The position numbers and the translations under genes were made by a program. Positions 1-41,728 of a stretch of DNA of 64,000 nucleotides are shown piece after piece. The notes under the pieces were generated by a model. That model had not been told where the DNA came from and made no database searches. It was given only the letters and a program-made list of their open reading frames with translations. Source of the DNA: Escherichia phage Av-05; the sequence record KM190144. One strand, written 5' to 3'. How positions within the stretch are numbered: position 1 is the first letter of the stretch; each line of letters starts with the position of its first letter.

Positions 1-300
1 CATGCAGATCAGACTATATCTTGTGTGTTATTACACACCCCCCTGTTTCGGCGGTTGATAATCAACCGGAGGTTTCCCTCACCGCTTGGCCCTAACGCCC
101 GTAAGCGATAGTCGTTGAACGTTCATCCCATAGGGATGCTTCGCTGCGGATTGTCTAAACATTCACACTGTTACTATACTCAACGTCATTACCGTTGACC
201 ATAAATATGTTACCATACCTACTTAGTGGTGATATGTATAAAGAGTTACCCGTCAATTAAAGGGGTTTATAGAGAGCACACGGTTCTACCCTCATCGAAA
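1..300 (-). mobile_element. Group I self-splicing intron (5' part; continues beyond window start) interrupting the terminase large-subunit gene
   Basis: Minus-strand reading gives the four conserved group I core elements in canonical order P-Q-R-S: P-like AATTGACGGG (plus 249-258), Q-like AATCCGCAGC (143-152), R-like GTTCAACGACTA (109-120), S-like AAGATATAGTC (12-22). Region is non-coding and the terminase ORF stops at 267. Boundaries approximate. Confidence 0.6.
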
Positions 301-1397
301 CCTATAAAGGTATACTGCAAACCCTGATGATCTAATTTGTTATTCTCATACTCCATGTGTCTCCACAACACCTTTGCCCCAGATGGGAAAATTGCTTCCA
401 GAGCTTTCTCCCTGAACTTCGGTTTCCATTCCTTATCAAGTTGCAAATAAATACTTTTCGCTGTATCAAAAAGTCCACCTGCACCTGTCAATTGAGGTGT
501 TGTCCTACGAAACATTATACATGCTGTCTGCGGGTCATCGACATAAGCAAGCGGCATCAATTGTAGGAGATATGATTTTCCACTATTCCCAGTGACAACT
601 ACACAATCTTCTAGTCTGGTAACAAAGAAACCTGTTTGTGTTACAAAGCAGTATTTAAACCCATCCGTAGGTATAAACTCTTTAAACTCAACTTTCTCTT
701 TATCGTTTAATGCTCTTAATGACTCGCCATTAACGTTTACATTAACAATGTACTCTGAGCCAATCTTCTTCAAAGAAGACTCATAATCGAAGCAGGAAAC
801 AACAAACTGGATAAAATCAGCAGTGGATTTGTTACTGGAAGAATACATACCGCCTTGTGCGATAATGGTATCCATGATTACATCAAGTTGATGCCTTGAG
901 CAGTTATAATAGTTCTCTGTTATCTCACCACACAACACTCGCTCTCTGATTGTTTCATCATCTAAGTCCAAACCTGCACCAGAATAATTGAATGTTGTGA
1001 TAAATTTTCCTTCCCAACCACCGCTGGAATTTTTATGTGTCTCCGCAATTTCCGAAAATGGTTGCGTTTTTGGTGGAGTATGGTAATCTTCTTTAAATAG
1101 GACAGTGTGTTCGTCAGATAACTCTTGACAAATACCATTACCTTCTATTCTTGTAAGTTTTTCGCAAGGGAGTTTAACAAACTCTAAAGGAGGGATAAAT
1201 TTAGCCTCCCCTGTGGCTTTATCATATTGCAGAATGTCCTGCCCTGACCATTCTGCTATCTTAATCCAGCCAGATGGTGTCAACACCTCGTGGTCTTTAG
1301 ACAAACACCCGGCGGCCCCGCCAATTATTAGAATTTGGGCTTTACTCTCCAAAATCATTTTTTGTTTAGGACTGGCAGGTCCAAATACTTTACTCAA
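267..1397 (-). CDS. Terminase large subunit, N-terminal ATPase exon, with intein in the Walker A loop; TTG start
   Basis: ORF track; N-terminus MSKVFGPASPKQKMILESKAQILIIGGAAG then, after the insert, SGKSYLL, which reconstitutes the P-loop GAAGSGKS typical of terminase ATPases; FIGFDEG Walker-B-like; GGAGG RBS; C-terminal nuclease domain absent and presumably in a downstream exon beyond the intron. Confidence 0.7.
   Translation of the reverse strand: MSKVFGPASPKQKMILESKAQILIIGGAAGCLSKDHEVLTPSGWIKIAEWSGQDILQYDKATGEAKFIPPLEFVKLPCEKLTRIEGNGICQELSDEHTVLFKEDYHTPPKTQPFSEIAETHKNSSGGWEGKFITTFNYSGAGLDLDDETIRERVLCGEITENYYNCSRHQLDVIMDTIIAQGGMYSSSNKSTADFIQFVVSCFDYESSLKKIGSEYIVNVNVNGESLRALNDKEKVEFKEFIPTDGFKYCFVTQTGFFVTRLEDCVVVTGNSGKSYLLQLMPLAYVDDPQTACIMFRRTTPQLTGAGGLFDTAKSIYLQLDKEWKPKFREKALEAIFPSGAKVLWRHMEYENNKLDHQGLQYTFIGFDEGRTVCSL
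585..1307 (-). mobile_element. Intein (about 241 aa) inserted in terminase P-loop
   Basis: Insert begins Cys-Leu-Ser-Lys-Asp-His-Glu-Val (block A-like CLxxDxxV), ends ...VVVTGN followed by Ser (C-terminal Asn plus nucleophile); flanks rejoin to a perfect Walker A. Penultimate His is absent, so atypical. Confidence 0.55.
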
Positions 1398-1446
1398 AAG
1401 ACCTCCATATTTTCTATTCCTACCATAGAAGGTAGTTTACCACGAA

Positions 1447-1484
1447 TAACGATAAAAATAAAGCCCTTACCCTTAAATAAGGGC
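1447..1484 (-). terminator. Rho-independent terminator after spanin genes
   Basis: Hairpin GCCCTTA/TAAGGGC (1463-1484) followed on minus strand by TTTATTTTTAT. Confidence 0.55.
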
Positions 1485-1492
1485 ATTGTCAA

Positions 1493-1786
1493 CTATTTGT
1501 CTGAAGAAAATATTGTCTTTACATACTGCTGCAACGTTCTTAATTTCATGCGATCTTCAGCAGCATTAATGTTGTTTTTCTTGATCACCTCGATGGCATC
1601 TGCGTTGCTGAGACCACGAGGCAATTTTTCAGGTTCTTTCGGTGGTATCATAGCTTCAGCGGGTGGTCTTGCTAAAAGATCGCTTATCACAACTTCTTTT
1701 GCAACAGGAACAACTCTCTCAGGTGGTGAAGTGCACCCTGTTAACATAAACAATAGAAAAGGAACCATGATAACATACTTTTTCAT
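1493..1786 (-). CDS. o-spanin (outer-membrane lipoprotein, Rz1-like)
   Basis: Signal peptide with lipobox LTGC, Pro-rich mature region, start overlaps stop of upstream i-spanin. Confidence 0.6.
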   Translation of the reverse strand: MKKYVIMVPFLLFMLTGCTSPPERVVPVAKEVVISDLLARPPAEAMIPPKEPEKLPRGLSNADAIEVIKKNNINAAEDRMKLRTLQQYVKTIFSSDK

Positions 1787-2184
1787 TTAGACCCCAAACT
1801 GTCGTTATAGATATCAACAAACTGGTTATCGAGGCAAACCTGTTTTCCTGCTTGTGTCTTGCTATAGCTTTTAATCTTTTTGTCAAGATTTTCTTTCAAT
1901 TGATTGTTGATTTCCCTCTCTTGCACTAACATGGTTGACAATTCATCTATCTTATCCTGCTGTTGCTTTTTAAAAGCGTTATTATGATCCCGAACTTGCT
2001 GGTTAATCCTCTCCCATTTAAGATCAGTGTCGCTGACACCTGCGTTGTACGACGATGTTAACTGGTCATTATACCAATGTTTTATCCCCAAGATACCACA
2101 GACGAGAACCACACCACACAAAACAACACCTATCTGTTTTATGTTCTTAGAAAAGAAAGTTAACAGCGTTTTAAACCATATCAT
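1783..2184 (-). CDS. i-spanin (Rz-like, N-terminal TM plus coiled coil)
   Basis: N-terminal hydrophobic segment IGVVLCGVVLVCGILGI, charged helical remainder; ATGA overlap with upstream gene. Confidence 0.6.
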   Translation of the reverse strand: MIWFKTLLTFFSKNIKQIGVVLCGVVLVCGILGIKHWYNDQLTSSYNAGVSDTDLKWERINQQVRDHNNAFKKQQQDKIDELSTMLVQEREINNQLKENLDKKIKSYSKTQAGKQVCLDNQFVDIYNDSLGSK

Positions 2185-3536
2185 GATATATCCCCATCAC
2201 ACTCAATAATGTTTTCAATTTTCAGTGTTGTTTTTCTGTTTTCAGAAATATTAATCTTATCAGTTATGATATCGTATTGCATCTCAGATGGATTACTTAT
2301 TGAGACATCTAAGAGAACTGCGCCAGGTTTATACGTTTCATATCCATAACCATCTGTCTTACCCTCCTTGCACAGGTATTCGTAATATTCTCTTGCCTTC
2401 TTCTCATCAACATAAAGGCTGAGAGTGCGAAAATTATTTGCTATATCTTCTTTGTAAAGCCCAACATAATGTGTATCTTTTGTTGGCATCATGAGATAGA
2501 AAACTTCAGCAGGACAAACTCCATATAGTTTTGTAAAGTATTTCCTGCCTGTTGCTTTTCTTAATCTTTGAAAGATATTAAACATATTAATTTTAGATAC
2601 ATCATTAAACGGCAACGGTTGCACAGGGGTAACATTTTTGTCTACCTGCTGGCAACAAGATTCTAATCTGTCCAGGCACTCAACCAAAGAATCAAGTGAA
2701 AACTGTTTTGTCTCATCAAAGATATCAGACAGTTTCATTCCGTACATCCCGCTAAGATGTGACTTTGCCGATTCCCAACTTTCTATCTGAAGGCTAGCAA
2801 TGGTCATGGACAGTTTCATTGTCTCTTTTTTCGAAATTGTATAGCCACGAGATTTGTATTTTTCAGATCTCAAAAGTGACATAATCGGGTATTCAGTCTT
2901 ATGATTTACAACTAAGACCCTTTGAGCGATATGTTTTAAGAAGTTGCTATCAAATTCCCACACACCATCTTTGAAGTTAAAAGCACCCATATTTATTGTA
3001 AAATCAAATTTGCTAAAGATATCTTCTGTTGTTTTGAACACATCCATAGCCACACATTGAAAGACAGGCTCTTGTCCAAAGTAAAACATCACACTCTTAT
3101 CTGTCACACCAACCTTTTTGGTTGGTAAATTATCATCTTCATCACCTAAATAATCGCATTCATTGTCATATTTTCTACCTCTAGAAAGAGGATCTGTAAA
3201 ATTTGAAAATGAGGTGTCGCCGTGATCAAGTTTATAGAAATTCCTAAATGCTATTTTTTGTTCTGAGGCCCAGCCATTTGTTTTCTCAGACAAATCATAC
3301 TTTCCTGACAAGAGTCTTTTATCCATCATGTACGCAATGAATATCTCAAGATTTTCCCAAGATGGGAAATACAAATCAAGATCGTTGACTTTACTATTAG
3401 AGAACAAAGAGGTTATTGCCCCGCCAGCTATCTTAACATTCAGCTTTGACAATAAATCATAAACACCTTTTGGTATAAAAGAGCGCAAAATGTCATACTC
3501 TCTTTGAAAATCTTCTTTTTTGAAAACATGCAACAT
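2181..3536 (-). CDS. Hypothetical 452-aa protein with nucleotidyltransferase-fold-like motif, co-transcribed with spanins
   Basis: Start at internal ATG 3536 with GGAGAG RBS; motif KIAGGAITSLFSNSKVNDLDLYF fits hG[GS]x(9-13)DhDh of Pol-beta superfamily; no lysozyme motif recognised. Confidence 0.5.
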   Translation of the reverse strand: MLHVFKKEDFQREYDILRSFIPKGVYDLLSKLNVKIAGGAITSLFSNSKVNDLDLYFPSWENLEIFIAYMMDKRLLSGKYDLSEKTNGWASEQKIAFRNFYKLDHGDTSFSNFTDPLSRGRKYDNECDYLGDEDDNLPTKKVGVTDKSVMFYFGQEPVFQCVAMDVFKTTEDIFSKFDFTINMGAFNFKDGVWEFDSNFLKHIAQRVLVVNHKTEYPIMSLLRSEKYKSRGYTISKKETMKLSMTIASLQIESWESAKSHLSGMYGMKLSDIFDETKQFSLDSLVECLDRLESCCQQVDKNVTPVQPLPFNDVSKINMFNIFQRLRKATGRKYFTKLYGVCPAEVFYLMMPTKDTHYVGLYKEDIANNFRTLSLYVDEKKAREYYEYLCKEGKTDGYGYETYKPGAVLLDVSISNPSEMQYDIITDKINISENRKTTLKIENIIECDGDIS

Positions 3537-3582
3537 CTTAACTCTCCTTGAGTACAAAACAAGATGCGTAAAGACTAGCACA

Positions 3583-3609
3583 TAAAGAAAAACCCCGCAA
3601 TAGGCGGGG
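3583..3609 (-). terminator. Rho-independent terminator at 3' end of tRNA operon
   Basis: Hairpin CCCCGC-AATAG-GCGGGG; minus strand T-run follows (plus-strand A-run 3583-3591). Confidence 0.6.
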
Positions 3610-3741
3610 TTAGGCATAGGAGAGGAGATTGATTGGATTATTATTATAGTTATTTGAGAAAAGTGGCGAAGGAACCTTTACATGTCGAGAGTGTCTTACC
3701 GTTTACTCAGCCACGACCTTCCTTAGTGTCCACTTTAATTC

Positions 3742-3817
3742 TGGTTGCGAGTATTGGGATCGAACCAATCTGGACTGGCTTATGAGACCAGCGAAGTCAC
3801 CAGACTTCAAACTCGCA
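3742..3817 (-). tRNA. tRNA-Met (anticodon CAU), CCA encoded
   Basis: Manual cloverleaf: acceptor TGCGAGT/ACTCGCA, anticodon loop CTCATAA, T-loop TTCGATC. Confidence 0.75.
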
Positions 3818-3821
3818 ATGT

Positions 3822-4052
3822 TCATTTATTACCAAGAGAAATCCTTCTAGGTGGATGACCAAAATGGATCTCATAAGAACCATCAAGTCTTCCTTTCTTT
3901 GTCCGGCAATACTTATCTACTTTCTTGTAGTCCTTCACCTCTTGAGTAGTATACCTAGAATCGGCAATAAGTAGAATAAGAGGCCACCCAACACAAAATT
4001 TTCTAACTGTCTCTATTTTTTGGATATATGCACTCTTCAATTTTCTTCGCAT
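3822..4052 (-). CDS. Small basic hypothetical protein (76 aa) between tRNA genes
   Basis: ORF track only. Confidence 0.3.
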   Translation of the reverse strand: MRRKLKSAYIQKIETVRKFCVGWPLILLIADSRYTTQEVKDYKKVDKYCRTKKGRLDGSYEIHFGHPPRRISLGNK

Positions 4053-4067
4053 GATCTATTTCCTGTT

Positions 4068-4143
4068 TGGTGTGACGGACAGGATTCGAACCTGTGACCA
4101 CCTAGTCTTCAGCAAGGCACTCTACCAACTGAGTTACCGTCAC
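4068..4143 (-). tRNA. tRNA-Phe (GAA), CCA encoded
   Basis: Acceptor GTGACGG/CCGTCAC, D-arm ACTC..GAGT, anticodon loop CTGAAGA, T-loop TTCGAAT. Confidence 0.8.
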
Positions 4144-4148
4144 ATGAT

Positions 4149-4225
4149 TGGTAGGCGATGAGGGACTCGAACCCCCAAAATTCAGGTTCTAAGCCTGACA
4201 TGTATACCAATTCCATCAATCGCCC
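4149..4225 (-). tRNA. tRNA with anticodon UAG (Leu codon family) but class I (short variable loop) architecture
   Basis: Acceptor GGGCGAT/ATCGCCT, anticodon stem TCAGG/CCTGA, loop CTTAGAA, 5-nt variable loop, T-loop TTCGAGT, discriminator A, CCA encoded. Confidence 0.6.
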
Positions 4226-4239
4226 ATCTATATTAACAG

Positions 4240-4431
4240 TTACGGTTTTCCGCGATACACAGAAATAGTTTTTCCATTGGCATTGATCACGTAGGCGGTC
4301 TGATCCTCAGACAAAAATACTTTTTGATCAACGCCGGAAATAGCTATAGACTTTTGATGAGCGCAATACCCAACAATTTTGCCACAAAAAATTTGTTCAT
4401 CATTTGGGGAGACTACTTTAACTGTTAACAT
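4240..4431 (-). CDS. Small hypothetical protein (about 64 aa)
   Basis: ORF track trimmed to internal ATG preceded by GAGGA; upstream part of track ORF overlaps tRNA-Pro. Confidence 0.3.
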   Translation of the reverse strand: MLTVKVVSPNDEQIFCGKIVGYCAHQKSIAISGVDQKVFLSEDQTAYVINANGKTISVYRGKP

Positions 4432-4473
4432 GGTATCCTCTGTACATTTCTGTTTTGATATGTATATGTTTGT

Positions 4474-4551
4474 TGGTCTGTCCGGTTGGATTTGAACCAA
4501 CGACCTGATCATCCCAAGTGACCCGCGCTACCCAAGCTGCGCTACGGACAG
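4474..4551 (-). tRNA. tRNA-Pro (UGG), CCA encoded
   Basis: Acceptor CTGTCCG/CGGACAG, D-stem GCGC, anticodon loop CTTGGGA, T-loop TTCAAAT. Confidence 0.8.
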
Positions 4552-4635
4552 AGAGATGTAGATTTTAATTGTCCCAGAATCTACAAACTGGTATCGCTGG
4601 CTAGGTGATATCTGTGACTTGATTAAGTCAAGAAT

Positions 4636-4726
4636 TGGCGGTTCCTGAAGGATTCGAACCTTCGGTGGGGAGATTCCTCCCAACGGCTTAACAGGCCGTC
4701 ACCATCGACCACTCGGTCAAAGAACC
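4636..4726 (-). tRNA. Class II (long variable arm) tRNA with anticodon GUU (Asn codons); identity ambiguous
   Basis: Acceptor GGTTCTT/AGGAACC, Ser-like D-arm ACC-GAGTGGTCGAT-GGT, anticodon stem ACGGC/GCCGT with loop CTGTTAA, 19-nt variable arm TGGGAGGAATCTCCCCACC, T-loop TTCGAAT, discriminator G, CCA encoded. Confidence 0.55.
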
Positions 4727-4735
4727 AGAATATTT

Positions 4736-4812
4736 TGGTGGATCTGGTTAGATTCGAACTAACAATCCCTCGATTAAAAGTCAAGTGCCTTAAACCATTT
4801 GGCTACAGATCC
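4736..4812 (-). tRNA. tRNA-Lys (UUU), CCA encoded
   Basis: Acceptor GGATCTG/CAGATCC, anticodon loop CTTTTAA, T-loop TTCGAAT. Confidence 0.8.
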
Positions 4813-5034
4813 TTTAAATTATCTTTAAAATAGCTAATTACTCGCACATAATTAGCTATACGCAACAGCCCTCTAGGGAGGGCACACTAATGATAGATTA
4901 CGATTACATGACCATCATGAGTGTTTGACTTACGCCAGTAAAGAGCGGACTGCTCTGGGGTATCGGTAAGATGGTTGCAGCCATCCACCGAAAAATCACA
5001 CCAAGCAACTAAACAAGCTACATTAAAGATAACT

Positions 5035-5123
5035 TGGAGGAGGCTGACAGAATCGAACTGTCACCATATCTCTACAGCGGGACTGGGTTCAAACCAGCTT
5101 GTGCACCATGCACCCCAGCCTCC
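5035..5123 (-). tRNA. tRNA-Ser (UGA), class II, CCA encoded
   Basis: Acceptor GGAGGCT/AGCCTCC, anticodon stem GCTGG/CCAGT loop TTTGAAC, long variable arm, T-loop TTCGATT. Confidence 0.65.
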
Positions 5124-5201
5124 AAAAATAGCCTCTGCCGAGAAGATACACCCAACAAAGACGGCGCTCAGGTCCGAAGAAATCTGAGCCTTGACATACA
5201 G

Positions 5202-5295
5202 TGGAGGAAGATGCCAGACTTGAACTGGCACACCCATTTCTGGGTTACTATCTCCTTAGCAGGGAGACCCCTTACCAAATTAGGGTTAATCTTCC
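5202..5295 (-). tRNA. tRNA-Ser (GCU), class II, CCA encoded
   Basis: Acceptor GGAAGAT/ATCTTCC, anticodon stem TCTCC/GGAGA loop CTGCTAA, long variable arm, T-loop TTCAAGT. Confidence 0.7.
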
Positions 5296-5316
5296 AATAC
5301 CTTAGTAATTAAAAAC

Positions 5317-5406
5317 TGGTGGAGAAGGAGAGAATCGAACTCTCAAGCCGTTTTACCAGTCAGCACATTTCCAATGTGGTTTCGTCGCCAATCGATTTGC
5401 TTCTCC
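5317..5406 (-). tRNA. tRNA-Ser (GGA) candidate, class II, CCA encoded
   Basis: Acceptor GGAGAAG/CTTCTCC, T-arm GAGAG-TTCGATT-CTCTC, anticodon loop TTGGAAA with one mismatch in stem; D-arm irregular. Confidence 0.5.
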
Positions 5407-5415
5407 GTTTTAACT

Positions 5416-5491
5416 TGGCAGGGGATGGTTGATTCGAACAACCGATCACGGGGTCAAAGCCCGTTGCATTAGGCCACTATGCTAATCCCCT
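5416..5491 (-). tRNA. tRNA-Gln (UUG), CCA encoded
   Basis: Acceptor AGGGGAT/ATCCCCT, D-stem GCAT/ATGC, anticodon stem ACGGG/CCCGT loop CTTTGAC, T-loop TTCGAAT. Confidence 0.8.
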
Positions 5492-5492
5492 T

Positions 5493-5574
5493 TGGCACGA
5501 GAGTGAGGAATCGAACCCCTTAGTCACTGGTTTTGGAGGCCAGCCTTCACCCAGTGAAGTTACGCTACTCTCAT
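5493..5574 (-). tRNA. tRNA-Trp (CCA) candidate with atypical, extended D-arm region
   Basis: Anticodon loop CTCCAAA followed by ACC as in E. coli tRNA-Trp; T-loop TTCGATT; acceptor ATGAGAG/CTCTCGT; 79 nt before CCA. Confidence 0.5.
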
Positions 5575-5597
5575 TAAAAACTATTTTCGGAATGGGT

Positions 5598-6140
5598 TTA
5601 TATATAAAACGCCAACATCACTCTTTCTCTTGAGAAAGCTCGGTCTTCAGGAACAACACTCTTCAGTTTCCAACCAACATAAATTCGCCAGTAAAATTGT
5701 TTTCCAAACAGTCTGAAAGACGGGACAAACGCGAATAAACCCCACGCATTGTCATTCCACATCAGCAAGTAGCCTTGTTGATTATCCTCCACATCAGAGC
5801 TTACATGGATGTTTCCTTTCCACTTTGTCACAGATGTAATTTCACGCCCAAGTGCGTGATAGGAGAAATTGTAGGCTTTATTTCTCCACAACCAAGCAAC
5901 TCGTTGCAGATAAACACCAAAACTCCCTATCTTGCGAACTTCTGCCCATCTCTCTATGTGTCCTTTATCACCATCTATAGGATTATCATATGTTTCCATC
6001 CACCTGAAAATATAAGGTAGATGCCCTGTCTTCTCATTATAGAACGGAACAACAAAAGGAGCCAGAATAACACAGAGAACCGACATAACTGGGTCAAGAG
6101 GTGCTAACAGAATCCACGATAAATATTTCAAGTATCTCAT
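5598..6140 (-). CDS. Hypothetical protein (180 aa, hydrophobic N-terminus) embedded in tRNA cluster
   Basis: ORF track; no recognisable motif. Confidence 0.45.
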   Translation of the reverse strand: MRYLKYLSWILLAPLDPVMSVLCVILAPFVVPFYNEKTGHLPYIFRWMETYDNPIDGDKGHIERWAEVRKIGSFGVYLQRVAWLWRNKAYNFSYHALGREITSVTKWKGNIHVSSDVEDNQQGYLLMWNDNAWGLFAFVPSFRLFGKQFYWRIYVGWKLKSVVPEDRAFSRERVMLAFYI

Positions 6141-6367
6141 GCAGGATCAAGCCTAGATATAATGTACTGGTTTAAATCTGAATATGGGAAGATACTTTCA
6201 AAGATAACCTGTTTAAATCTGAAACCGCACAAACCGAAAAGTACCTTCTGACACTCCCCAAAAGAACAATCTTTACCAACTTTTATCACAACCGTATCGG
6301 CAACCTGCACACTTTCTATCTCTTTAGGTTCATGATGCCGTACTATGATTACTTTAGAAACCATCAT
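6137..6367 (-). CDS. Hypothetical protein (76 aa)
   Basis: ORF track; 4-nt overlap with downstream ORF suggests coupling. Confidence 0.4.
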   Translation of the reverse strand: MMVSKVIIVRHHEPKEIESVQVADTVVIKVGKDCSFGECQKVLFGLCGFRFKQVIFESIFPYSDLNQYIISRLDPA

Positions 6368-6492
6368 ACTCGTCCGTATTAAAGCCTTCTACTAAAGATA
6401 GAAGATGTCTAGGGTTGGACCGCAAACTCAACCCCATGGAATTTGTTACGGTCTTCAGTTGACCCAAGCGGATTTCATTGACATCTTTTAGA

Positions 6493-6567
6493 TGGAGCAT
6501 CCAGAGGGTATCGAACCCTCGACTTCAGCTTGGAAGGCTGTAGTTTTCCCAATTAAACTATGGATGC
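6493..6567 (-). tRNA. tRNA-Gly (UCC), CCA encoded
   Basis: Acceptor GCATCCA/TGGATGC, D-stem GTTT/AAAC, anticodon loop CTTCCAA, T-loop TTCGATA. Confidence 0.75.
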
Positions 6568-6572
6568 ATATT

Positions 6573-6648
6573 TGGTGGGAGTGGTAGGCTCTGCCCCTAC
6601 GTCCTCTCGATTATCGGTCGAGCGATCTACTAACTGATCTACACTCCC
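6573..6648 (-). tRNA. tRNA-Ile (GAU)-like gene with non-canonical T-loop and C33
   Basis: Acceptor GGGAGTG/CACTCCC, D-arm GATC-AGTTAGTA-GATC, perfect anticodon stem CTCGA/TCGAG with loop CCGATAA, T-arm GTAGG-GGCAGAG-CCTAC lacks TTCGA, CCA encoded. Confidence 0.45.
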
Positions 6649-6716
6649 AAACTGTACTGGCCCAACAACCACGATTGGAGGGTATCGTCACACATCAAAG
6701 CCAGTACAGATTTAGT

Positions 6717-6806
6717 TGGTGTGCCGTGATAGAGTCGAACTACCCGAGTCCCTTTCGAGACAGGAGATTTACAGTCTCCCCCGCTACCCCTACGGTCTAA
6801 CGACAC
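6717..6806 (-). tRNA. tRNA-Tyr (GUA), class II, CCA encoded
   Basis: Acceptor GTGTCGT/ACGGCAC, anticodon stem GGAGA/TCTCC loop CTGTAAA, long variable arm, T-loop TTCGACT. Confidence 0.75.
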
Positions 6807-6807
6807 A

Positions 6808-7155
6808 TTAACCTTGTTTGAATTGAACAATATCCGTCGAGAACGGTTTAGCTGCCTTAATGGGAGCTTTTTCTGAGTTATCTTTTTCGAGTAACTCTTC
6901 GTTTTCCTCATCAAAGTAATCAGAAAGCATCTGCTCACCTTTCTCAATAACATAGCGAGCAATATTTTCTCTGATATTGTCTTTTGTATTCACATTCTTC
7001 ATCAAATCCCTAAGAACCTGATGAGCTTCAGGAATCATTGCAATCAGATTCGTTTTCAAATCTAGGATATTTTTCTCTAACTGAATTGCATTAGATTCCT
7101 CTTTCAGAGGACGACCTTTTCCTCTTCTACGTTTTGTAAGCTGCTTAGTAGCCAT
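6808..7155 (-). CDS. Hypothetical basic protein (about 116 aa; MATKQLTKRRRGKGRPLKE...)
   Basis: ORF track trimmed to ATG at 7155 downstream of a consensus promoter; the longer track ORF overlaps tRNA genes. Confidence 0.45.
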   Translation of the reverse strand: MATKQLTKRRRGKGRPLKEESNAIQLEKNILDLKTNLIAMIPEAHQVLRDLMKNVNTKDNIRENIARYVIEKGEQMLSDYFDEENEELLEKDNSEKAPIKAAKPFSTDIVQFKQG

Positions 7156-7174
7156 TTTAAAACCCCACTTAATG

Positions 7175-7203
7175 ATATTATCAAATAAAAACATATCTGT
7201 CAA
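7175..7203 (-). promoter_or_regulatory. Sigma70-like promoter (TTGACA-17-TAATAT)
   Basis: Minus strand -35 TTGACA at plus 7198-7203, 17-nt spacer, -10 TAATAT at plus 7175-7180. Confidence 0.6.
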
Positions 7204-7240
7204 GTGGTATTTTAACATATTTACCAAGAAATTGAAAGTT

Positions 7241-34036: not shown

Positions 34037-34229
34037 GCAACCCTCGCTTGTGCCTGTACATTGCTAAGGGCCATACAGAACTCACTATAAAGCATTTCCA
34101 TGCCCAGCCCCATGCAGTTTTTGGTGCATATACCTGCTCAAGTATTTTACTATTCTCCATCTCTGCGGTATGTACAAACCATACAGCAATATACAATGTA
34201 ACTATAATGTAGATAAAGCCATTAATCAT
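34011..34229 (-). CDS. Small membrane protein (72 aa)
   Basis: ORF track; hydrophobic N-terminal half. Confidence 0.35.
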   Translation of the reverse strand: MINGFIYIIVTLYIAVWFVHTAEMENSKILEQVYAPKTAWGWAWKCFIVSSVWPLAMYRHKRGLHEEKTGTA

Positions 34230-35283
34230 TCATCTTATCCCAGCACATTTGTTGCGCTGTCATCAAAACATCGGCAGCAAAGTTAAGATCTGTTGTCTTC
34301 GGTAAATGCGTGTTCTTGTACAGAGTGTTACGAATATAATCATCCTTCTCTTCTGCCCAAGCCAAGAGCTTCTCCAAAGACCATGCACCATTCCTGATTG
34401 CAAGAAGCTCCTGAGCATCAGGTCTTTTTACTAAGACTTTACCTTCTGCTAAGATCTCCTCAGCCATACGCATCAATCTTACCAAATGGAGGGCATGTTT
34501 GCAATCGTACCCGTACTTTTCTTCTAACTCATGCCGGACCGGATTTCTGTTTTCAACCCATGCCCAGTAGTTCTTATGCTTTTCCTTCGCTTGTTTATGG
34601 TCATCTGCCAGATATTTAACGATTAAAATTGGCTTACGTTTCTTATCCTCGTCAGAGAACTGCTCGTATGGAACTTTACGAATAGAACCATCAGAGTTAA
34701 ACAAACCAGCGTTGTCATGTGTACCAATCACACCATAGATATTATCACCCATCGGCAAAAAGACACACAACTTATTAAGGTCATCCAGCATTTTCTGGAA
34801 GTCTTTATGTTTTGTAAGATTATCATCCATCCACGAGTGTGTCAAGCGCATGAACTCTTTTTGTGTTGGTTGCTCTTTAGGTTGCGGGTTATTAATCCAT
34901 TTATTATGGCCTTTGATACGCTTAAGTTGCGCCATCGCGTACCCAGAAAATGTAAAAGCAACTTTGCTTGATAGAAGTTTTGGCGCTTGCTCGCGTAGGT
35001 ACTCGTAAACATCTGAAGTTTGCAGAATGTCACCTCTATCAACAAACATAAGCTCGATAATGTTTGGGTTCATATCAACGAACAGCTTCATATAGTTTGT
35101 TAGCTCATACAGCTTACCATCCTCTTCATCAATAAGAGTCATCTCCCTGTCAACGAAAAATGGGGTAAGAATGCTTTTAGGCTCTGCACAATAAATTCCG
35201 CGAATATCCACATCGGATGTTGGCAAGTTAGTTCCATAGGCAATACTGCCGGAGTAACAACGCATTAGTTCTAGTTTCTTCAT
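34222..35283 (-). CDS. Nucleotidyltransferase-fold (Pol-beta superfamily) protein (353 aa)
   Basis: Classic motif GSIAYGTNLPTSDVDIRGIY (GSx(9-13)DhDh) at N-terminus, helical C-terminal domain. Confidence 0.6.
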   Translation of the reverse strand: MKKLELMRCYSGSIAYGTNLPTSDVDIRGIYCAEPKSILTPFFVDREMTLIDEEDGKLYELTNYMKLFVDMNPNIIELMFVDRGDILQTSDVYEYLREQAPKLLSSKVAFTFSGYAMAQLKRIKGHNKWINNPQPKEQPTQKEFMRLTHSWMDDNLTKHKDFQKMLDDLNKLCVFLPMGDNIYGVIGTHDNAGLFNSDGSIRKVPYEQFSDEDKKRKPILIVKYLADDHKQAKEKHKNYWAWVENRNPVRHELEEKYGYDCKHALHLVRLMRMAEEILAEGKVLVKRPDAQELLAIRNGAWSLEKLLAWAEEKDDYIRNTLYKNTHLPKTTDLNFAADVLMTAQQMCWDKMND

Positions 35284-35660
35284 TGTTGTACCTTTTTGTC
35301 TTTTCTTGCATTATCCCAAAAATTAAGGATATTTTGGTAACGGATTTTGTCTTCCATATATTCAGCTTCATCACGAAGACCACATACATGGTCTATTAAG
35401 GCACATACTTCATTATGGTATTCTGTGCCACTCGTGATGTGTTTAATCATACAAGATCCTGCTTTCCATTTCGAGAGGGAGTATCTCAGATTATCATCTT
35501 TTTCTGTGGGGAAAGCATCAACAAGCACCTTTGCTCTATTCCCTTGTATCGTTTGCACTGTTCCTCGGCGCAGTTCGTTATTACCCCAATAGATAAATAC
35601 TGTATCGCCAACAAATAATCTTGTTCCGCTTGCATCCCTCATTTTATGCCCCCAACACAA
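35280..35660 (-). CDS. Hypothetical protein (126 aa)
   Basis: ORF track. Confidence 0.45.
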   Translation of the reverse strand: MCWGHKMRDASGTRLFVGDTVFIYWGNNELRRGTVQTIQGNRAKVLVDAFPTEKDDNLRYSLSKWKAGSCMIKHITSGTEYHNEVCALIDHVCGLRDEAEYMEDKIRYQNILNFWDNARKDKKVQQ

Positions 35661-35988
35661 AGAAATAATGAACTGTTACCGCTGCAAAGTAAAGCGTTTT
35701 GGAAATCAATCGTAGCCAGCAATCTCTGTTTGTATACACTTTTCCTGCTAAGATATTACTCCCTGTTACGATATTTCCCCACAGCCACACAACAAACAAG
35801 AATGCTCCGAGCAAACCACTTGTCGGTGGTGTTAATGTAGTAATCATCGCAATACCTTCGAGGGTGGCGAATATGAAGAAGTATGGAAATGCCTCCCTTA
35901 CACATTTTATTCCTTTGCCAGTAATGCAGGTATTAACTAAACCTATAAGACAAAATATCGTCCAAAGCACATACAATGTATAAACCAT
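35644..35988 (-). CDS. Membrane protein (114 aa, multiple TM)
   Basis: ORF track; hydrophobic. Confidence 0.45.
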   Translation of the reverse strand: MVYTLYVLWTIFCLIGLVNTCITGKGIKCVREAFPYFFIFATLEGIAMITTLTPPTSGLLGAFLFVVWLWGNIVTGSNILAGKVYTNRDCWLRLISKTLYFAAVTVHYFFVLGA

Positions 35989-36053
35989 AATCCACTTAAC
36001 CCCAAAAATGTTAACCTCTCCAAACCTATCAGAGAGGTTTCAAAAATAATCTA

Positions 36054-36551
36054 CTACTCACCTTTTAGCTTAAAACTTTTCAATGTTTTGATAAAGTCTT
36101 TCTCCGCTGGTGTGTAAGTGTGTACGAAACCTGTCTCTTCGCAGGTGTAGGTATCATTAACCTCCATTGCGTGTGGAGGGATAAATGCACCATCAGGAAC
36201 AGACTTATATTCCGGGTTGTAGATAAATTCCGGCAGCACAACAGCTACAGCAGTCATTGCCCCATTCAAGGCTTTCTTTTCTTCACGCCACCAAGCCACA
36301 GGGTAGGTTTGTAAAGACATTGCCTGATCAAGAAAATCTTCAAGCACGGACTGATAACCACCATTCAAAACAATAATGGTCTTATCTTCTTCTTTCCAGC
36401 ATTTCAGCCAATGGTGTGCAGTGATCTGCTCTGGTGTATATGCTTCACCACTATGCAAAACCATAAGCTCTGCAATGGCGTGTGCTGATTGGATACCTGC
36501 ATGGATACCGCAGATATACTGGTTAACAATACAATACATTCTTGTTTTCAT
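36054..36551 (-). CDS. Hypothetical protein (165 aa) with weak PTH2-type peptidyl-tRNA hydrolase-like N-terminal motif
   Basis: MYCIVNQ..GIHAGIQSAHAIAEL loosely resembles PTH2 signature (hhVVR.DL.MG.GKIAAQ.SHAA); assignment tentative. Confidence 0.35.
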   Translation of the reverse strand: MKTRMYCIVNQYICGIHAGIQSAHAIAELMVLHSGEAYTPEQITAHHWLKCWKEEDKTIIVLNGGYQSVLEDFLDQAMSLQTYPVAWWREEKKALNGAMTAVAVVLPEFIYNPEYKSVPDGAFIPPHAMEVNDTYTCEETGFVHTYTPAEKDFIKTLKSFKLKGE

Positions 36552-36766
36552 TTTTGTTTCTTCCTCAAAATTATCCGTTCAGGACTGAAAAATTCTTTCA
36601 AACACAGGAAGATGGCTAATGCGCCACCCAACCACCAAAAAGGTATCAACAGCAAAGCAGGTATTAAGTCCTCTCCTGTGATACAATCCTGTGTTTTATA
36701 GGTCATGGTAAGAAATACACCTGCTGCTACTATCCCAGCAACCACATACAAGATCAGTTCAATCAT
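36548..36766 (-). CDS. Small membrane protein (72 aa)
   Basis: ORF track; two TM segments. Confidence 0.4.
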   Translation of the reverse strand: MIELILYVVAGIVAAGVFLTMTYKTQDCITGEDLIPALLLIPFWWLGGALAIFLCLKEFFSPERIILRKKQK

Positions 36767-37079
36767 TATCCCGTTTCTCCAGAAACGCTTTCACCGCAAG
36801 AGCCGCAGCGTAAATTGCCACAAGACAAATACAAAATGTGAAAATAATAGGTAAAACCATTACCGCAAACATCATAAACAGTGGTCCTGCAACAGTAACG
36901 AATGCTGTTCCAAGCAACAATAGAAATACCACATATTTATCTGCCGTCTCATCCACCTTCTTAAGATACACACCTAAACACACAGAAGACAACAGGAATG
37001 ACAGAATGGACAGCAATAGATACCAATTATCAATAAAGATGATAATTGGACCAGCAACATTTTCTAGCCACCACATCAT
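36759..37079 (-). CDS. Membrane protein (106 aa)
   Basis: ORF track; three hydrophobic segments. Confidence 0.4.
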   Translation of the reverse strand: MMWWLENVAGPIIIFIDNWYLLLSILSFLLSSVCLGVYLKKVDETADKYVVFLLLLGTAFVTVAGPLFMMFAVMVLPIIFTFCICLVAIYAAALAVKAFLEKRDND

Positions 37080-37093
37080 ATATACTTACCTCT

Positions 37094-38338
37094 TTAGAAT
37101 AACATATCTCTGCTGATTGCTTTACGAATAGCATCAATACGGGCTACTCGCACAGCCTCACCAATCTCTTTACCCTTCTTACCTTTTTCCAGAAGGGGTT
37201 TTGTTATAGCTTTAGAATCAACTTTTGTCATAGCGTCGTAGGCTTCCAACAAAATATGACCCTGAGGATAAGGTTTATGTCTAAAATCACCACCTCTCCC
37301 TTTAGCATCACAATAACACGCATCTGCAAGTGTGTAAACCTTTATTTTCTGATCAGCTTGTCCAGCAGCTTCAAATATTTTCATGATGCTTTTTGGTTTC
37401 AAACCGTTGTTACCATCTTTGGGGGAGATGGCGTGCACTTTTGTGTGATTTTCCGCAACATATTTTGCCGTGTCACGATAGATATTATAAATCTTCAACC
37501 TTTCACACAAGGATTGGATAACATCTACACCAGCTTTTTCATGACCATGAAGATTACCATTGTCCTTATGAGTCACAGCTTTGCCAAAATCATGGCACAG
37601 CACAGCAAACTTGGTCAGTGGATCAGCTCCTAATTCATCAGCAACCCGTAACGCTAGAATTGTATGGGTGTAAGCATCCCCTTCTGGGTGATGTTCTTTA
37701 GGTTGTTGCACACCACGTAGGGCTTCCAGTTCAGGGAGTTCGCCAATACGTCCCATATTGACAGCAAAAGATCTGAAATAACCACTCTTTAAGGCTTTCA
37801 ACATTTCCTTCCATTTACGCTCGGCGCTTATTTCTGCCAAAGAGTGTCGGTTGTCATAAGCCAGTTTAAAAGTTTCTGGATGGATATGCCATTCTTCCCC
37901 AAGCTGGGCTTTAAATCTAAACAGGCGTAGAATACGTAATGGATCTTCAATAAATGCCTGTGATGTATGACGTAATGTTTTAAGTCCTAAGTCAACCTGA
38001 CCACCAAAAGGATCTATAATTTCACCACTCTCAACATCCATCGCCATGGAATTGATGGTTAGGTCTCTACGTGCCAAATCCTCTTCCAGAGTTACATCTG
38101 GACTAAAGCATACCTCAAATCCTTTATGGCCTTCACCTGTTTTTCTTTCTGTGCGTGCAAGAGCGTACTCTTCTCTTGTTTCTGGGTGAAGATAAACTGG
38201 AAAAGATGCGCCAACTTGTGTGAACCCTCTTTTCAACATCTCTTCATGCGTAGCACCAACAACCACATAATCACGGTCTGATATTTCACGACCTAACAAT
38301 TTATCTCTTACTGCGCCACCTACCAAGTATACCTTCAT
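37094..38338 (-). CDS. cca: CCA-adding enzyme (class II tRNA nucleotidyltransferase with HD phosphohydrolase domain)
   Basis: N-terminus MKVYLVGGAVRD...DRDYVVVG...RDLTINSMA matches bacterial Cca head domain; HD-type motif LCHDFGK; start at ATG overlapping upstream stop (ATGA). Confidence 0.85.
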   Translation of the reverse strand: MKVYLVGGAVRDKLLGREISDRDYVVVGATHEEMLKRGFTQVGASFPVYLHPETREEYALARTERKTGEGHKGFEVCFSPDVTLEEDLARRDLTINSMAMDVESGEIIDPFGGQVDLGLKTLRHTSQAFIEDPLRILRLFRFKAQLGEEWHIHPETFKLAYDNRHSLAEISAERKWKEMLKALKSGYFRSFAVNMGRIGELPELEALRGVQQPKEHHPEGDAYTHTILALRVADELGADPLTKFAVLCHDFGKAVTHKDNGNLHGHEKAGVDVIQSLCERLKIYNIYRDTAKYVAENHTKVHAISPKDGNNGLKPKSIMKIFEAAGQADQKIKVYTLADACYCDAKGRGGDFRHKPYPQGHILLEAYDAMTKVDSKAITKPLLEKGKKGKEIGEAVRVARIDAIRKAISRDMLF

Positions 38339-38607
38339 TTCTTCGCCCACGTATTCATATAATTAACAATATCTTTTACGGCTCTCTTTCCGTCTAGTGG
38401 ATAAACTATGTCATCGCTCATCCCACCGTGTTTTAGCATTGCTACCAGTCTAGTATATACCTCTTTTGGTCTTTTGCAAGTTCTTTTCTTCCATTTATGA
38501 CCGTCTGGGGAGTACTCCTTATCTTCAAGAGAGATATGAAGTATATCCCCTATAAACTCTTTAGCCTGTGTGCTGTAAAGTGGACGGTGGAATATGTAGA
38601 ATTTCAT
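38335..38607 (-). CDS. Hypothetical protein (about 91 aa) translationally coupled to cca
   Basis: Track ORF trimmed to ATG after AGGAGCAAGCA. Confidence 0.45.
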   Translation of the reverse strand: MKFYIFHRPLYSTQAKEFIGDILHISLEDKEYSPDGHKWKKRTCKRPKEVYTRLVAMLKHGGMSDDIVYPLDGKRAVKDIVNYMNTWAKK

Positions 38608-40902: not shown

Positions 40903-41211
40903 CTACCTAGCAATTAGATATTGTATCTTTCCGTCATCTTCCTGATACCCAACATCTACAACATAGTATTCCCCAACATCAGGAATCAACAACTTATCCC
41001 CAACCTCGTACTCTTTTGCGGTATGGTATACCATTGATTCTGTAAAATATTTGTACTTATCCATATCGTTAATGTTGCATGAGATTTCCATTTCTCCGTT
41101 GTTGTTGGGTATGAGAATATCCTCACCATTCTTTTTCCCAACCACATAACCACCTACCAATGTTTTAACTAAGCACAGTGTTTTATTGAGTTTGTCTTGG
41201 AACTTTGGCAA
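40903..41211 (-). CDS. Hypothetical protein (102 aa)
   Basis: ORF track. Confidence 0.45.
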   Translation of the reverse strand: MPKFQDKLNKTLCLVKTLVGGYVVGKKNGEDILIPNNNGEMEISCNINDMDKYKYFTESMVYHTAKEYEVGDKLLIPDVGEYYVVDVGYQEDDGKIQYLIAR

Positions 41212-41728
41212 AAGAATCCTCCATTTTGTCCAGGAATGTTTCCAGGAGTTTTATTCTTTCTGGTGTGTTAAGATTAAGTGTTTTAATCCCTTTCATCTTA
41301 GCAAGATTGACAGCAGTAGCCGTGCCGCCTCTTGGATTGCCATTCTTATCTTCTTTTGCAAAGTAGAGCACAAAGGAAGATGGCTTTGGGTTGTTAATAT
41401 TCACTCCCAACACTTGATGCACATTCCTAGAATGCAACGCAAATGCTGATCTGTTTCTCAACAATGCTTGTGGGTTTGGATGCACCTTTTGCACCAACTC
41501 ATCTCGATATTCTATTTGGTCGATATATAGATGGTTAATATATTGTAAGGCATAATCCCAGTTATCGTACAAACCCACTTCTTTATCACCAAAACCTTTC
41601 CATGGTATGTAGATTTCTGCGAGTCTGTTACCATACAACATTTTGGTTTTATCGTCAAGGCCATCGAAATATCGCTGCATCCCTCTCTGGAACGCTGCAT
41701 CGGCTCCTTCTGCCTTACCGCTCCGCAA
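41183..41728 (-). CDS. DprA/Smf-like (SLOG-type Rossmann) protein, tentative
   Basis: N-terminal SGKAEGADAAFQRG resembles the GxAxGxDxxAHxGA nucleotide-binding signature. Confidence 0.35.
   Translation of the reverse strand: MRSGKAEGADAAFQRGMQRYFDGLDDKTKMLYGNRLAEIYIPWKGFGDKEVGLYDNWDYALQYINHLYIDQIEYRDELVQKVHPNPQALLRNRSAFALHSRNVHQVLGVNINNPKPSSFVLYFAKEDKNGNPRGGTATAVNLAKMKGIKTLNLNTPERIKLLETFLDKMEDSFAKVPRQTQ

Follow-up and report, generated by a model that had tools for sequence, protein, structure and literature searches.

A probable divergent member of the Gad2 anti-Gabija family is encoded next to the spanin genes of Escherichia phage Av-05

We analysed a 64,000 nt stretch of DNA from Escherichia phage Av-05 (sequence record KM190144; this whole stretch is the window referred to below), concentrating on an open reading frame (ORF) on the minus strand at 2181-3536. 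Its product is identical to the hypothetical protein Av05_004 of this phage (YP_009111078.1; exact-sequence look-up). An earlier note on this DNA, made from the letters alone, had described the protein as an orphan nucleotidyltransferase linked to the spanins. From sequence comparison, Av05_004 very probably belongs, as a diverged member, to the Gad2 (Gabija anti-defence 2) family, and is thus an unannotated addition to a known family rather than something outside the known kinds of system. The best overall explanation, which we consider reasonably probable, is that the protein is a cytoplasmic two-module Gad2-family enzyme acting against Gabija-type defence. Within this reading, an anti-defence role in phage Av-05 itself, argued by analogy with characterized homologues, is an even call, and 3´-end tailing chemistry, suggested by the modelled fold, is doubtful. 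The features of the gene are as follows.

2181-3536, minus strand: ORF for a probable Gad2-family nucleotidyltransferase, 451 aa plus stop codon (from the ORF list)
3366-3431, minus strand: motif A, residues 36-57 (IAGGAITSLFSNSKVNDLDLYF), with catalytic D52 and D54; G38, G39, D52, D54 and Y56 invariant
3117-3359, minus strand: lineage-specific head insertion, residues ~60-140, partly helical and partly disordered
2982-3017, minus strand: motif B-like segment, residues 174-185 (FSKFDFTINMGA), with D178 (FDFTINMGA); F174, D178 and M183 invariant
2832-2897, minus strand: motif D-like neck helix, residues 214-235 (TEYPIMSLLRSEKYKSRGYTIS); T214, P217, R223, K226 and Y227 invariant
2184-2594, minus strand: C-terminal beta-rich domain, residues 315-451, with an ADP-ribosyltransferase (ART)-like (BC2332-like) fold and without a conserved catalytic triad

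Pairwise BLASTP of Av05_004 against the Gad2 protein of Bacillus phage SPbetaL7 gave 36% identity over 167 aa (E 1e-30), and for the N-terminal 50 aa, which include the GG..DxD motif, 42% identity (E 2e-9). The coding sequence annotated as Gad2 in SPbetaL7 was also recovered when phage genomes were searched by tblastn with Av05_004 (137 records matched). A search of 5.8 billion proteins returned 137 relatives, and a profile search of 1.84 billion representatives (50% identity clusters) placed 5,267 clusters in the Gad2 family at E<=1e-3 and 731 at E<=1e-30, so that the size of the family greatly exceeds the 170 homologues of its first description. Given this membership, the description of the protein as an orphan has to be dropped, while "anti-defence factor", one of the options that the earlier note had offered, is the one into which the family assignment falls. 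The Pfam family PF26128.2 was precomputed on all 120 homologues listed, and a local Pfam scan of Av05_004 was without a match to it. Searches of Pfam, NCBIfam and PADLOC with the protein gave no useful match, nor did searches of PDB sequences with either the single sequence or a profile. Among PHROGs, the matches were to families of unknown function and, weakly, to a "nucleotidyltransferase" family (E 1.9e-5). No match was found to the fold of the cGAS/DncV-like signalling nucleotidyltransferases (CD-NTases) or to a defence-system profile, and a search of 5,426 complete E. coli genomes at megablast sensitivity found no prophage copy of the gene.

Yirmiya et al. described two anti-Gabija proteins, of which Gad2 is the second. 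In that work, knockout of gad2 made SPbetaL7 sensitive to Gabija, a Gad2 homologue of a Brevibacillus laterosporus prophage abolished Gabija defence and was non-toxic, SPbetaL7 Gad2 expressed alone was toxic, and AlphaFold (AF2) modelling suggested a nucleotidyltransferase domain (bioRxiv 10.1101/2023.05.01.538930). A 2026 review lists the mechanism of Gad2 as unknown (PMC12904381). Av05_004 and SPbetaL7 Gad2 are both phage-borne and share a homologous nucleotidyltransferase core, the invariant GG..DxD and FDFT motifs, and probably the order of modules (head, neck, linker and C-terminal beta domain). Av05_004 differs in having a head insertion of ~80 residues and a strongly diverged C-terminal domain, in being encoded by an E. 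coli myovirus (Vequintavirinae) for which an effect on Gabija is a prediction, and in having a gene with a conserved place next to tRNA, spanin and terminase genes rather than one in an anti-defence locus. Gad1 likewise counters Gabija in Bacillus phages, and SPbeta-like phages carry gad2 at the locus where others carry gad1; unlike Gad2, however, Gad1 is not an enzyme but a stoichiometric cage around GajAB, and it has no sequence or fold relation to Gad2.

Conservation of the catalytic aspartates and their motif had been set beforehand as a check. D52, D54 and D178 were invariant both in an alignment of 56 diverse homologues and among 204 family members (340-500 residues long), as were G38, G39, Y56, F174, P217, R223, K226 and Y227, with T214 also invariant in the larger set. 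As judged from these alignments, conservation of GG...DxD is far beyond that of a chance motif, and the predicted active site, with its acidic triad of D52, D54 and D178, is intact. The earlier description of a Pol-beta-type nucleotidyltransferase carrying this motif was thus borne out: the ORF is real, the modelled fold is of class II, and the triad does not vary. In the alignment of 56, the head insertion occurs only in homologues of the enterobacterial/Vequintavirinae type; its residues 122-131 were modelled with a predicted local distance difference test (pLDDT) score <50.

The AF2 model of Av05_004 (pLDDT 87.5, predicted template modelling score 0.86) is that of a soluble alpha/beta protein with two modules. 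According to this model, residues 1-~300 form the head and helical neck of a class II (CCA-adding/poly(A) polymerase-type) Pol-beta nucleotidyltransferase. Among solved structures it came closest to bacterial poly(A) polymerase I, the top match, and to CCA-adding enzymes of class II. The matches included E. coli PcnB (3aql), CCA-adding enzymes from Thermotoga, Arabidopsis, Bacillus and human (3h37, 1miv and 1ou5 among the CCA-adding entries), two related tRNA-processing entries named "poly A polymerase" (3wfo and 4wby), and TENT5B. At the sequence level the likeness to the CCA enzyme of the same phage was faint (hhalign E 0.029), with GG..DxD of Av05_004 placed on GGAVRD..DRD and FDFTINMGA on RRDLTINSMA, and no match to Pfam PolyA_pol (PF01743) appeared at E up to 1. 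By inspection of family alignments, (L/F)HxDFLKHxAQRxLxFN and TxYPIxSxLRxxKY resemble class II motifs C and D. The statement that neither nucleotidyltransferase noticed at the outset resembles the CCA enzyme therefore fails for Av05_004, for which motifs A and B align by hhalign and C and D by inspection. The motif A (GG...DxD) head fold of class II is present, whereas RRD and EDxxR are not: motif B reads xFD and motif D reads TxYPIxS, with only the Asp, the Pro and the downstream R/K-Y kept, and the motif D-like helix, by eye similar to the class II EDPLRxLRAxRF, lacks the E-D...R residues that template the nucleotide. Class II CCA/poly(A) enzymes also have RNA-binding body and tail domains; Av05_004 has neither, and carries the ART-like domain instead. 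In a separate comparison, the full model matched many giant-virus proteins in BFVD (Klosneuvirinae, pithoviruses and a pandoravirus; Foldseek E 1e-7 to 1e-4), which combine ankyrin, BTB, F-box or VWFA domains with the same nucleotidyltransferase head fold.

The second module, residues 315-451, was compared with the ADP-ribosyltransferase superfamily. Its modelled fold resembles those of the BC2332-like protein 2aua, Tpt1/KptA, and the diphtheria-toxin-like and PARP catalytic domains, at sequence identities of 5-13%. The BC2332-like and CC0527-like proteins are families of the SCOP ADP-ribosylation superfamily, and a likeness of BC2332 to diphtheria-toxin-type enzymes has been predicted from structure. 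Neither an H-Y-E nor an R-S-E triad was conserved in this domain, in the close clade or among the 204 family members, and we therefore read it as degenerate. The only C-terminal positions that reached 90% in the Vequintavirinae-type set were F319, L325, R326, V340 and A381, and none was >72% conserved family-wide. As a degenerate ART-like module, residues 315-451 would more probably serve in binding than as another site of catalysis. The C-termini of Av05_004 and SPbetaL7 Gad2 align in pattern, but hhalign gave the profile match a probability of only 28% (E 6e-4, 35 columns). The ART-like domain is not mentioned in the Gad2 preprint (bioRxiv 10.1101/2023.05.01.538930).

The gene lies between a tRNA array and the two spanin genes, with the following features around it.

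3544-3549, minus strand: Shine-Dalgarno sequence AAGGAG upstream of the ATG at 3536, spacer 7 nt (read from the sequence)
3591-3611, minus strand: terminator-like hairpin AACCCCGC-CTATT-GCGGGGTT with a T run after it, separating the ORF from the tRNA array (consensus scan, pattern match only)
1783-2184, minus strand: i-spanin, 133 aa, with an N-terminal transmembrane segment (phrog_4297, Rz-like spanin, E 6.5e-49)
1493-1786, minus strand: o-spanin, 97 aa, with lipobox LTGC (phrog_1267, E 3.1e-23)
1463-1484, minus strand: terminator-like hairpin just 3´ of the o-spanin gene (consensus scan, pattern match only)

The true start of the gene is likely the ATG at 3536, in agreement with the earlier note. 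An alternative ATG at 3617 was rejected because a reading frame from there crosses the GC-rich hairpin with its T run (3611-3591), and it is without a ribosome-binding site. Direct reading of the sequence confirmed the reported overlap with the i-spanin gene, as the stop codon TGA (2183-2181) lies on the i-spanin ATG (2184-2182) in a 4 nt ATGA; the i-spanin stop codon overlaps the o-spanin start in the same manner (TGA/ATG). The PHROG matches above likewise uphold the identification of the downstream genes as spanins. The two hairpins possibly bracket a three-gene unit of Av05_004, i-spanin and o-spanin.

Phage Av-05 is the namesake of the genus Avunavirus (Vequintavirinae), and the genomes nearest to the window in a phage collection were Vequintavirinae. 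The order tRNA array, Av05_004 homologue, i-spanin, o-spanin and large terminase is the same in phage 4MG (47% protein identity) and in all nine Vequintavirinae-type loci from IMG/VR, and relatives in Avunavirus and Seunavirus and among Klebsiella phages carry the gene as well. Phage rV5 has its tRNA array, spanins and terminase in the same order, with an 89-aa ORF (gp069) in the slot; gp069 was considered as a remnant of the gene and proved unrelated on comparison. Among Escherichia phage records, homologues of the i-spanin occurred in 105 and the gene itself in eight. On this comparative evidence, the gene is an accessory one, and the slot that it takes up in some Vequintavirinae genera, with the tRNA array on one side and the spanin-terminase genes on the other, varies in content. 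Since rV5 fills the slot with an unrelated ORF, we consider the gene accessory and not a lysis gene, and, given that layout, its tight linkage to the spanins does not imply a shared function. Its position beside the spanins is a habit of the phage lineage and does not point to a part in lysis. Counter-defence cargo is a better match than lysis for a slot that is conserved while its content varies, in a lineage in which NAD+ salvage genes are also carried.

Neighbourhoods outside this lineage were compared as well. Clustering of 1,392 neighbouring ORFs from 79 loci gave no universal neighbour of Gad2-like genes. The only recurrent one outside the clade was an ATP-dependent DNA-ligase-like protein (KLDGIR motif), found within 6 kb at 13 of 69 non-Vequintavirinae loci (for example 7651-8487 of L082 and 11427-12263 of L074, in the IMG/VR set L019-L088); this recurrence probably stems from kinship of SPbeta-like phages and prophages, so that the cases may not be independent. 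Linkage to tRNA genes was considered as a family-wide feature in 60 related IMG/VR loci and rejected: a tRNA lay within 6 kb at nine of nine Vequintavirinae-type loci versus five of 51 others. In the Yersinia jumbo phage fHe-Yen9-04 (L008, 3995-8759), the Gad2-like gene g055 lies 1.6 kb upstream of the RNA ligase gene g060 and 3.5 kb upstream of the polynucleotide kinase/phosphatase gene g064, an RNA-repair neighbourhood. In PVP-SE1 (locus 1501-2917) and SSE121, the Gad2-like gene is annotated as two ORFs, of 184 aa and 252 aa. The PVP-SE1 split falls inside the lineage-specific insertion and separates motif A from motif B; it could be due to an error in sequencing, mark a frameshifted gene or pseudogene, or mean that the enzyme is made of two chains.

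If the favoured reading is correct, the protein would neutralise Gabija-type (OLD-family nuclease plus helicase) defence during infection, would do so catalytically, unlike the stoichiometric caging by Gad1, and would use the degenerate ART-like domain as a ligand- or substrate-binding module. Recent work places the action of Gabija at DNA ends lacking RecBCD, and an OLD-family nuclease, of the family to which GajA belongs, can cleave tRNAs, as shown for P2 Old (PMC12445682); DNA ends or RNAs are therefore plausible acceptors. Toxicity of some homologues would fit an enzyme acting on abundant host molecules. Several points weigh against this reading. Identity to the validated Gad2 is only ~36% and limited to the core, with the ~80-residue insertion on the side of Av05_004, and C-terminal homology is weak (the hhalign E of 6e-4 over 35 columns). 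The residues by which class II enzymes select nucleoside triphosphates (RRD for the ribose, EDxxR as the CTP/ATP template) are not conserved. The gene may be decaying in some lineages, given its split in PVP-SE1 and SSE121. Homologues in phages of Gram-negative bacteria are known from their sequences, and the anti-Gabija data, from which their role would be extrapolated, come from Bacillus and Brevibacillus proteins. The gene stands in an apparent unit with late genes (spanins and terminase), and anti-defence genes are usually early. Finally, tailing chemistry is suggested by the fold, and the mechanism of Gad2 was unsolved as of 2026 (PMC12904381).

Among other explanations, a lysis accessory that works with the spanins and replaces the missing neighbouring holin or endolysin would account for the ATGA overlap, for the gene order kept in several genera and for the bracketing hairpins. 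It is nevertheless close to refuted, as Av05_004 has no transmembrane segment, signal peptide or muralytic fold and no match to a lysis PHROG or Pfam family, homologues occur in Gram-positive phages, which have no spanins, rV5 keeps its spanins without the gene, and the endolysin is encoded elsewhere in PVP-SE1 and TH18. Opposite the spanins lies the tRNA array, and the gene could encode an RNA or tRNA 3´-end processing or repair enzyme serving that array, a second, specialised CCA/poly(A)-type enzyme that, for example, mends or tags tRNAs after damage from anticodon or acceptor nucleases of the host. All of the nearest folds belong to RNA 3´-end nucleotidyltransferases, the gene is directly downstream of the array in 4MG and all nine Vequintavirinae-type loci, the fHe-Yen9-04 homologue lies within ~4 kb of RNA ligase and polynucleotide kinase/phosphatase genes, and OLD-family nucleases can cut tRNAs (PMC12445682). 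We still regard this role as unlikely. The phage already has a canonical CCA enzyme, CCA is encoded in 14 of its 14 ARAGORN-called tRNAs, the tRNA-holding body and tail domains are replaced by the ART-like domain, neither RRD nor the templating EDxxR is conserved, tRNA cutting was shown for P2 Old and not for GajA, and, since a tRNA is nearby at only five of 51 non-Vequintavirinae loci, the adjacency reflects one lineage.

A small nucleotide product is a further candidate, for example one that keeps nucleotide-inhibited GajA off or intercepts a defence signal, with NAD+ or ADP-ribose bound by the ART-like domain as substrate or regulator. ATP levels have been said to regulate Gabija activity (discussion in PMC12445682), the fold of the C-terminal domain is similar to NAD+-binding ones and the phage carries NAD+ salvage genes, but the domain is without conserved NAD+-binding or catalytic residues, and we hold the idea to be improbable. 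We think just as little of a host-takeover or toxic enzyme, such as one that tails host RNA indiscriminately and sends it to decay, the anti-Gabija effect in Bacillus being a by-product. SPbetaL7 Gad2 alone is toxic, a nucleotidyltransferase with homologues that carry the Gad2 family label in some other phages was cytotoxic in P. putida at high induction, and the top structural match is poly(A) polymerase I, which in bacteria marks RNAs for decay; a non-toxic homologue nonetheless blocks Gabija fully, and the accessory status and patchy distribution of the gene are what one would expect of counter-defence and not of core takeover. In its most extended form, the favoured anti-Gabija reading would make Gad2-family proteins terminal nucleotidyltransferases derived from CCA/poly(A)-type enzymes. 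These would alter nucleic acids at their 3´ ends, with tRNAs or phage DNA ends as possible substrates and with the ART-like domain binding NAD+/ADP-ribose or nucleic acid, so that OLD-family nuclease systems (Gabija, perhaps also tRNA-cutting Old/PARIS-type systems) cannot sense or use them; in Vequintavirinae they would be expressed with the tRNA array as a tRNA-centred counter-defence module. This extension is quite unlikely as a whole.

Gad2 is one of few anti-defence proteins thought to work enzymatically. With the present assignment, a protein so far called hypothetical, from an E. coli phage lineage of the therapeutic type, gains a probable family, and the chemistry to be expected of that family is narrowed to a CCA/poly(A)-type head and neck minus the residues that template the incoming nucleotide, plus a degenerate ADP-ribosyltransferase-like domain. 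For phage therapy, presence of the gene (Av-05- and PVP-SE1-like phages) versus its absence (rV5-like phages) could help to explain why Vequintavirinae differ in host range on Gabija-carrying E. coli.

The earlier note had also remarked on the lack of a lysin or holin beside the spanins. That part stands: no endolysin was detected in the window, where none of 117 ORFs had a muralytic motif and tblastn with the PVP-SE1 endolysin gave no match, and no holin lay beside the spanins, small membrane proteins being found elsewhere in the window. The judgement that this is unusual does not stand. The endolysin gene of PVP-SE1 (gene 146) is at 102 kb and its spanins are at 61 kb; in TH18, the closest available genome, the endolysin is at 108.7 kb next to PhoH and the spanins are at 67.5-68.3 kb. 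With ~40 kb between them in both relatives, scattered lysis genes are the rule in Vequintavirinae, and a spanin pair without a neighbouring lysin is thus ordinary. A block comprising the CCA enzyme, a hydrolase, an RlaP-type nucleotidyltransferase, a methyltransferase, a ClpP-like and a DprA-like protein is syntenic with PVP-SE1 and TH18 and ends at ~41740 in the window, followed by tail genes in the opposite orientation relative to TH18. Because the syntenic block stops there, the endolysin-PhoH segment falls outside the window. The position ~41740 is a breakpoint relative to TH18: 978-16039 of the window is colinear with TH18 67066-81773, 41740-64000 matches TH18 from 58383 down to 36230 in reverse, and the DprA-like ORF at 41183-41728, at the breakpoint, is truncated at its N terminus. 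An inversion of about 50 kb would fit these observations, as would a misassembly in one of the records.

Two other nucleotidyltransferases are encoded in the window.

34222-35283, minus strand: second nucleotidyltransferase, RlaP-type (RNA-repair-associated Pol-beta family; Pfam PF10127, E 5.4e-13, above cut-off; phrog_388, E 5e-77)
37094-38350, minus strand: canonical class II CCA-adding enzyme (phrog_2244, tRNA nucleotidyltransferase, E 2.5e-144), syntenic with PVP-SE1 gene 159

The Pfam match supports the earlier recognition of a second nucleotidyltransferase fold at 34222-35283; beyond the superfamily, this protein is unrelated to Av05_004. Both genes belong to an RNA-related block on the minus strand (34222-38350) that also encodes small membrane proteins and a "hydrolase" and is syntenic with PVP-SE1 genes 159-166. 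By eye, the "hydrolase" (phrog_3668, 36054-36551) has a peptidyl-tRNA-hydrolase-2-like motif.

The tRNA array has at least 15-16 members rather than 14, as ARAGORN missed a tRNA at 6576-6648 on the minus strand (Rfam, 53.4 bits). Another candidate, at 3742-3817 on the minus strand, folds into a 76-nt cloverleaf in which the anticodon is CAU and the 3´ CCA is encoded (minimum free energy -27 kcal/mol, z -3.4). It was not called by ARAGORN or by Rfam at gathering score, and the D arm has an atypical look; in relatives, this place immediately upstream of the Gad2-like gene is taken by a tRNA-Met(CAT). The tRNA-Asn(GTT) at 4636-4726 on the minus strand is 91 nt long, which is unusual for Asn and suggests an insert or a long variable arm, and the Asn tRNAs of relatives are also long (85-89 nt).

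The NAD+ salvage genes encode a nicotinamide phosphoribosyltransferase (10571-12286) and a ribose-phosphate pyrophosphokinase (12350-13159), both on the minus strand, a NARP2-like counter-defence pair. A 2026 study of Erwinia phages found that gad2 and NARP2 co-occur perfectly in them, probably an effect of shared lineage. Downstream of the spanins, the large terminase ORF (267-1397, minus strand) is broken after a Walker A-like GGAAG by an intein-like segment (CLSKDHEVLT...); at the same place, relatives have an HNH homing endonuclease and a terminase gene joined from three pieces.

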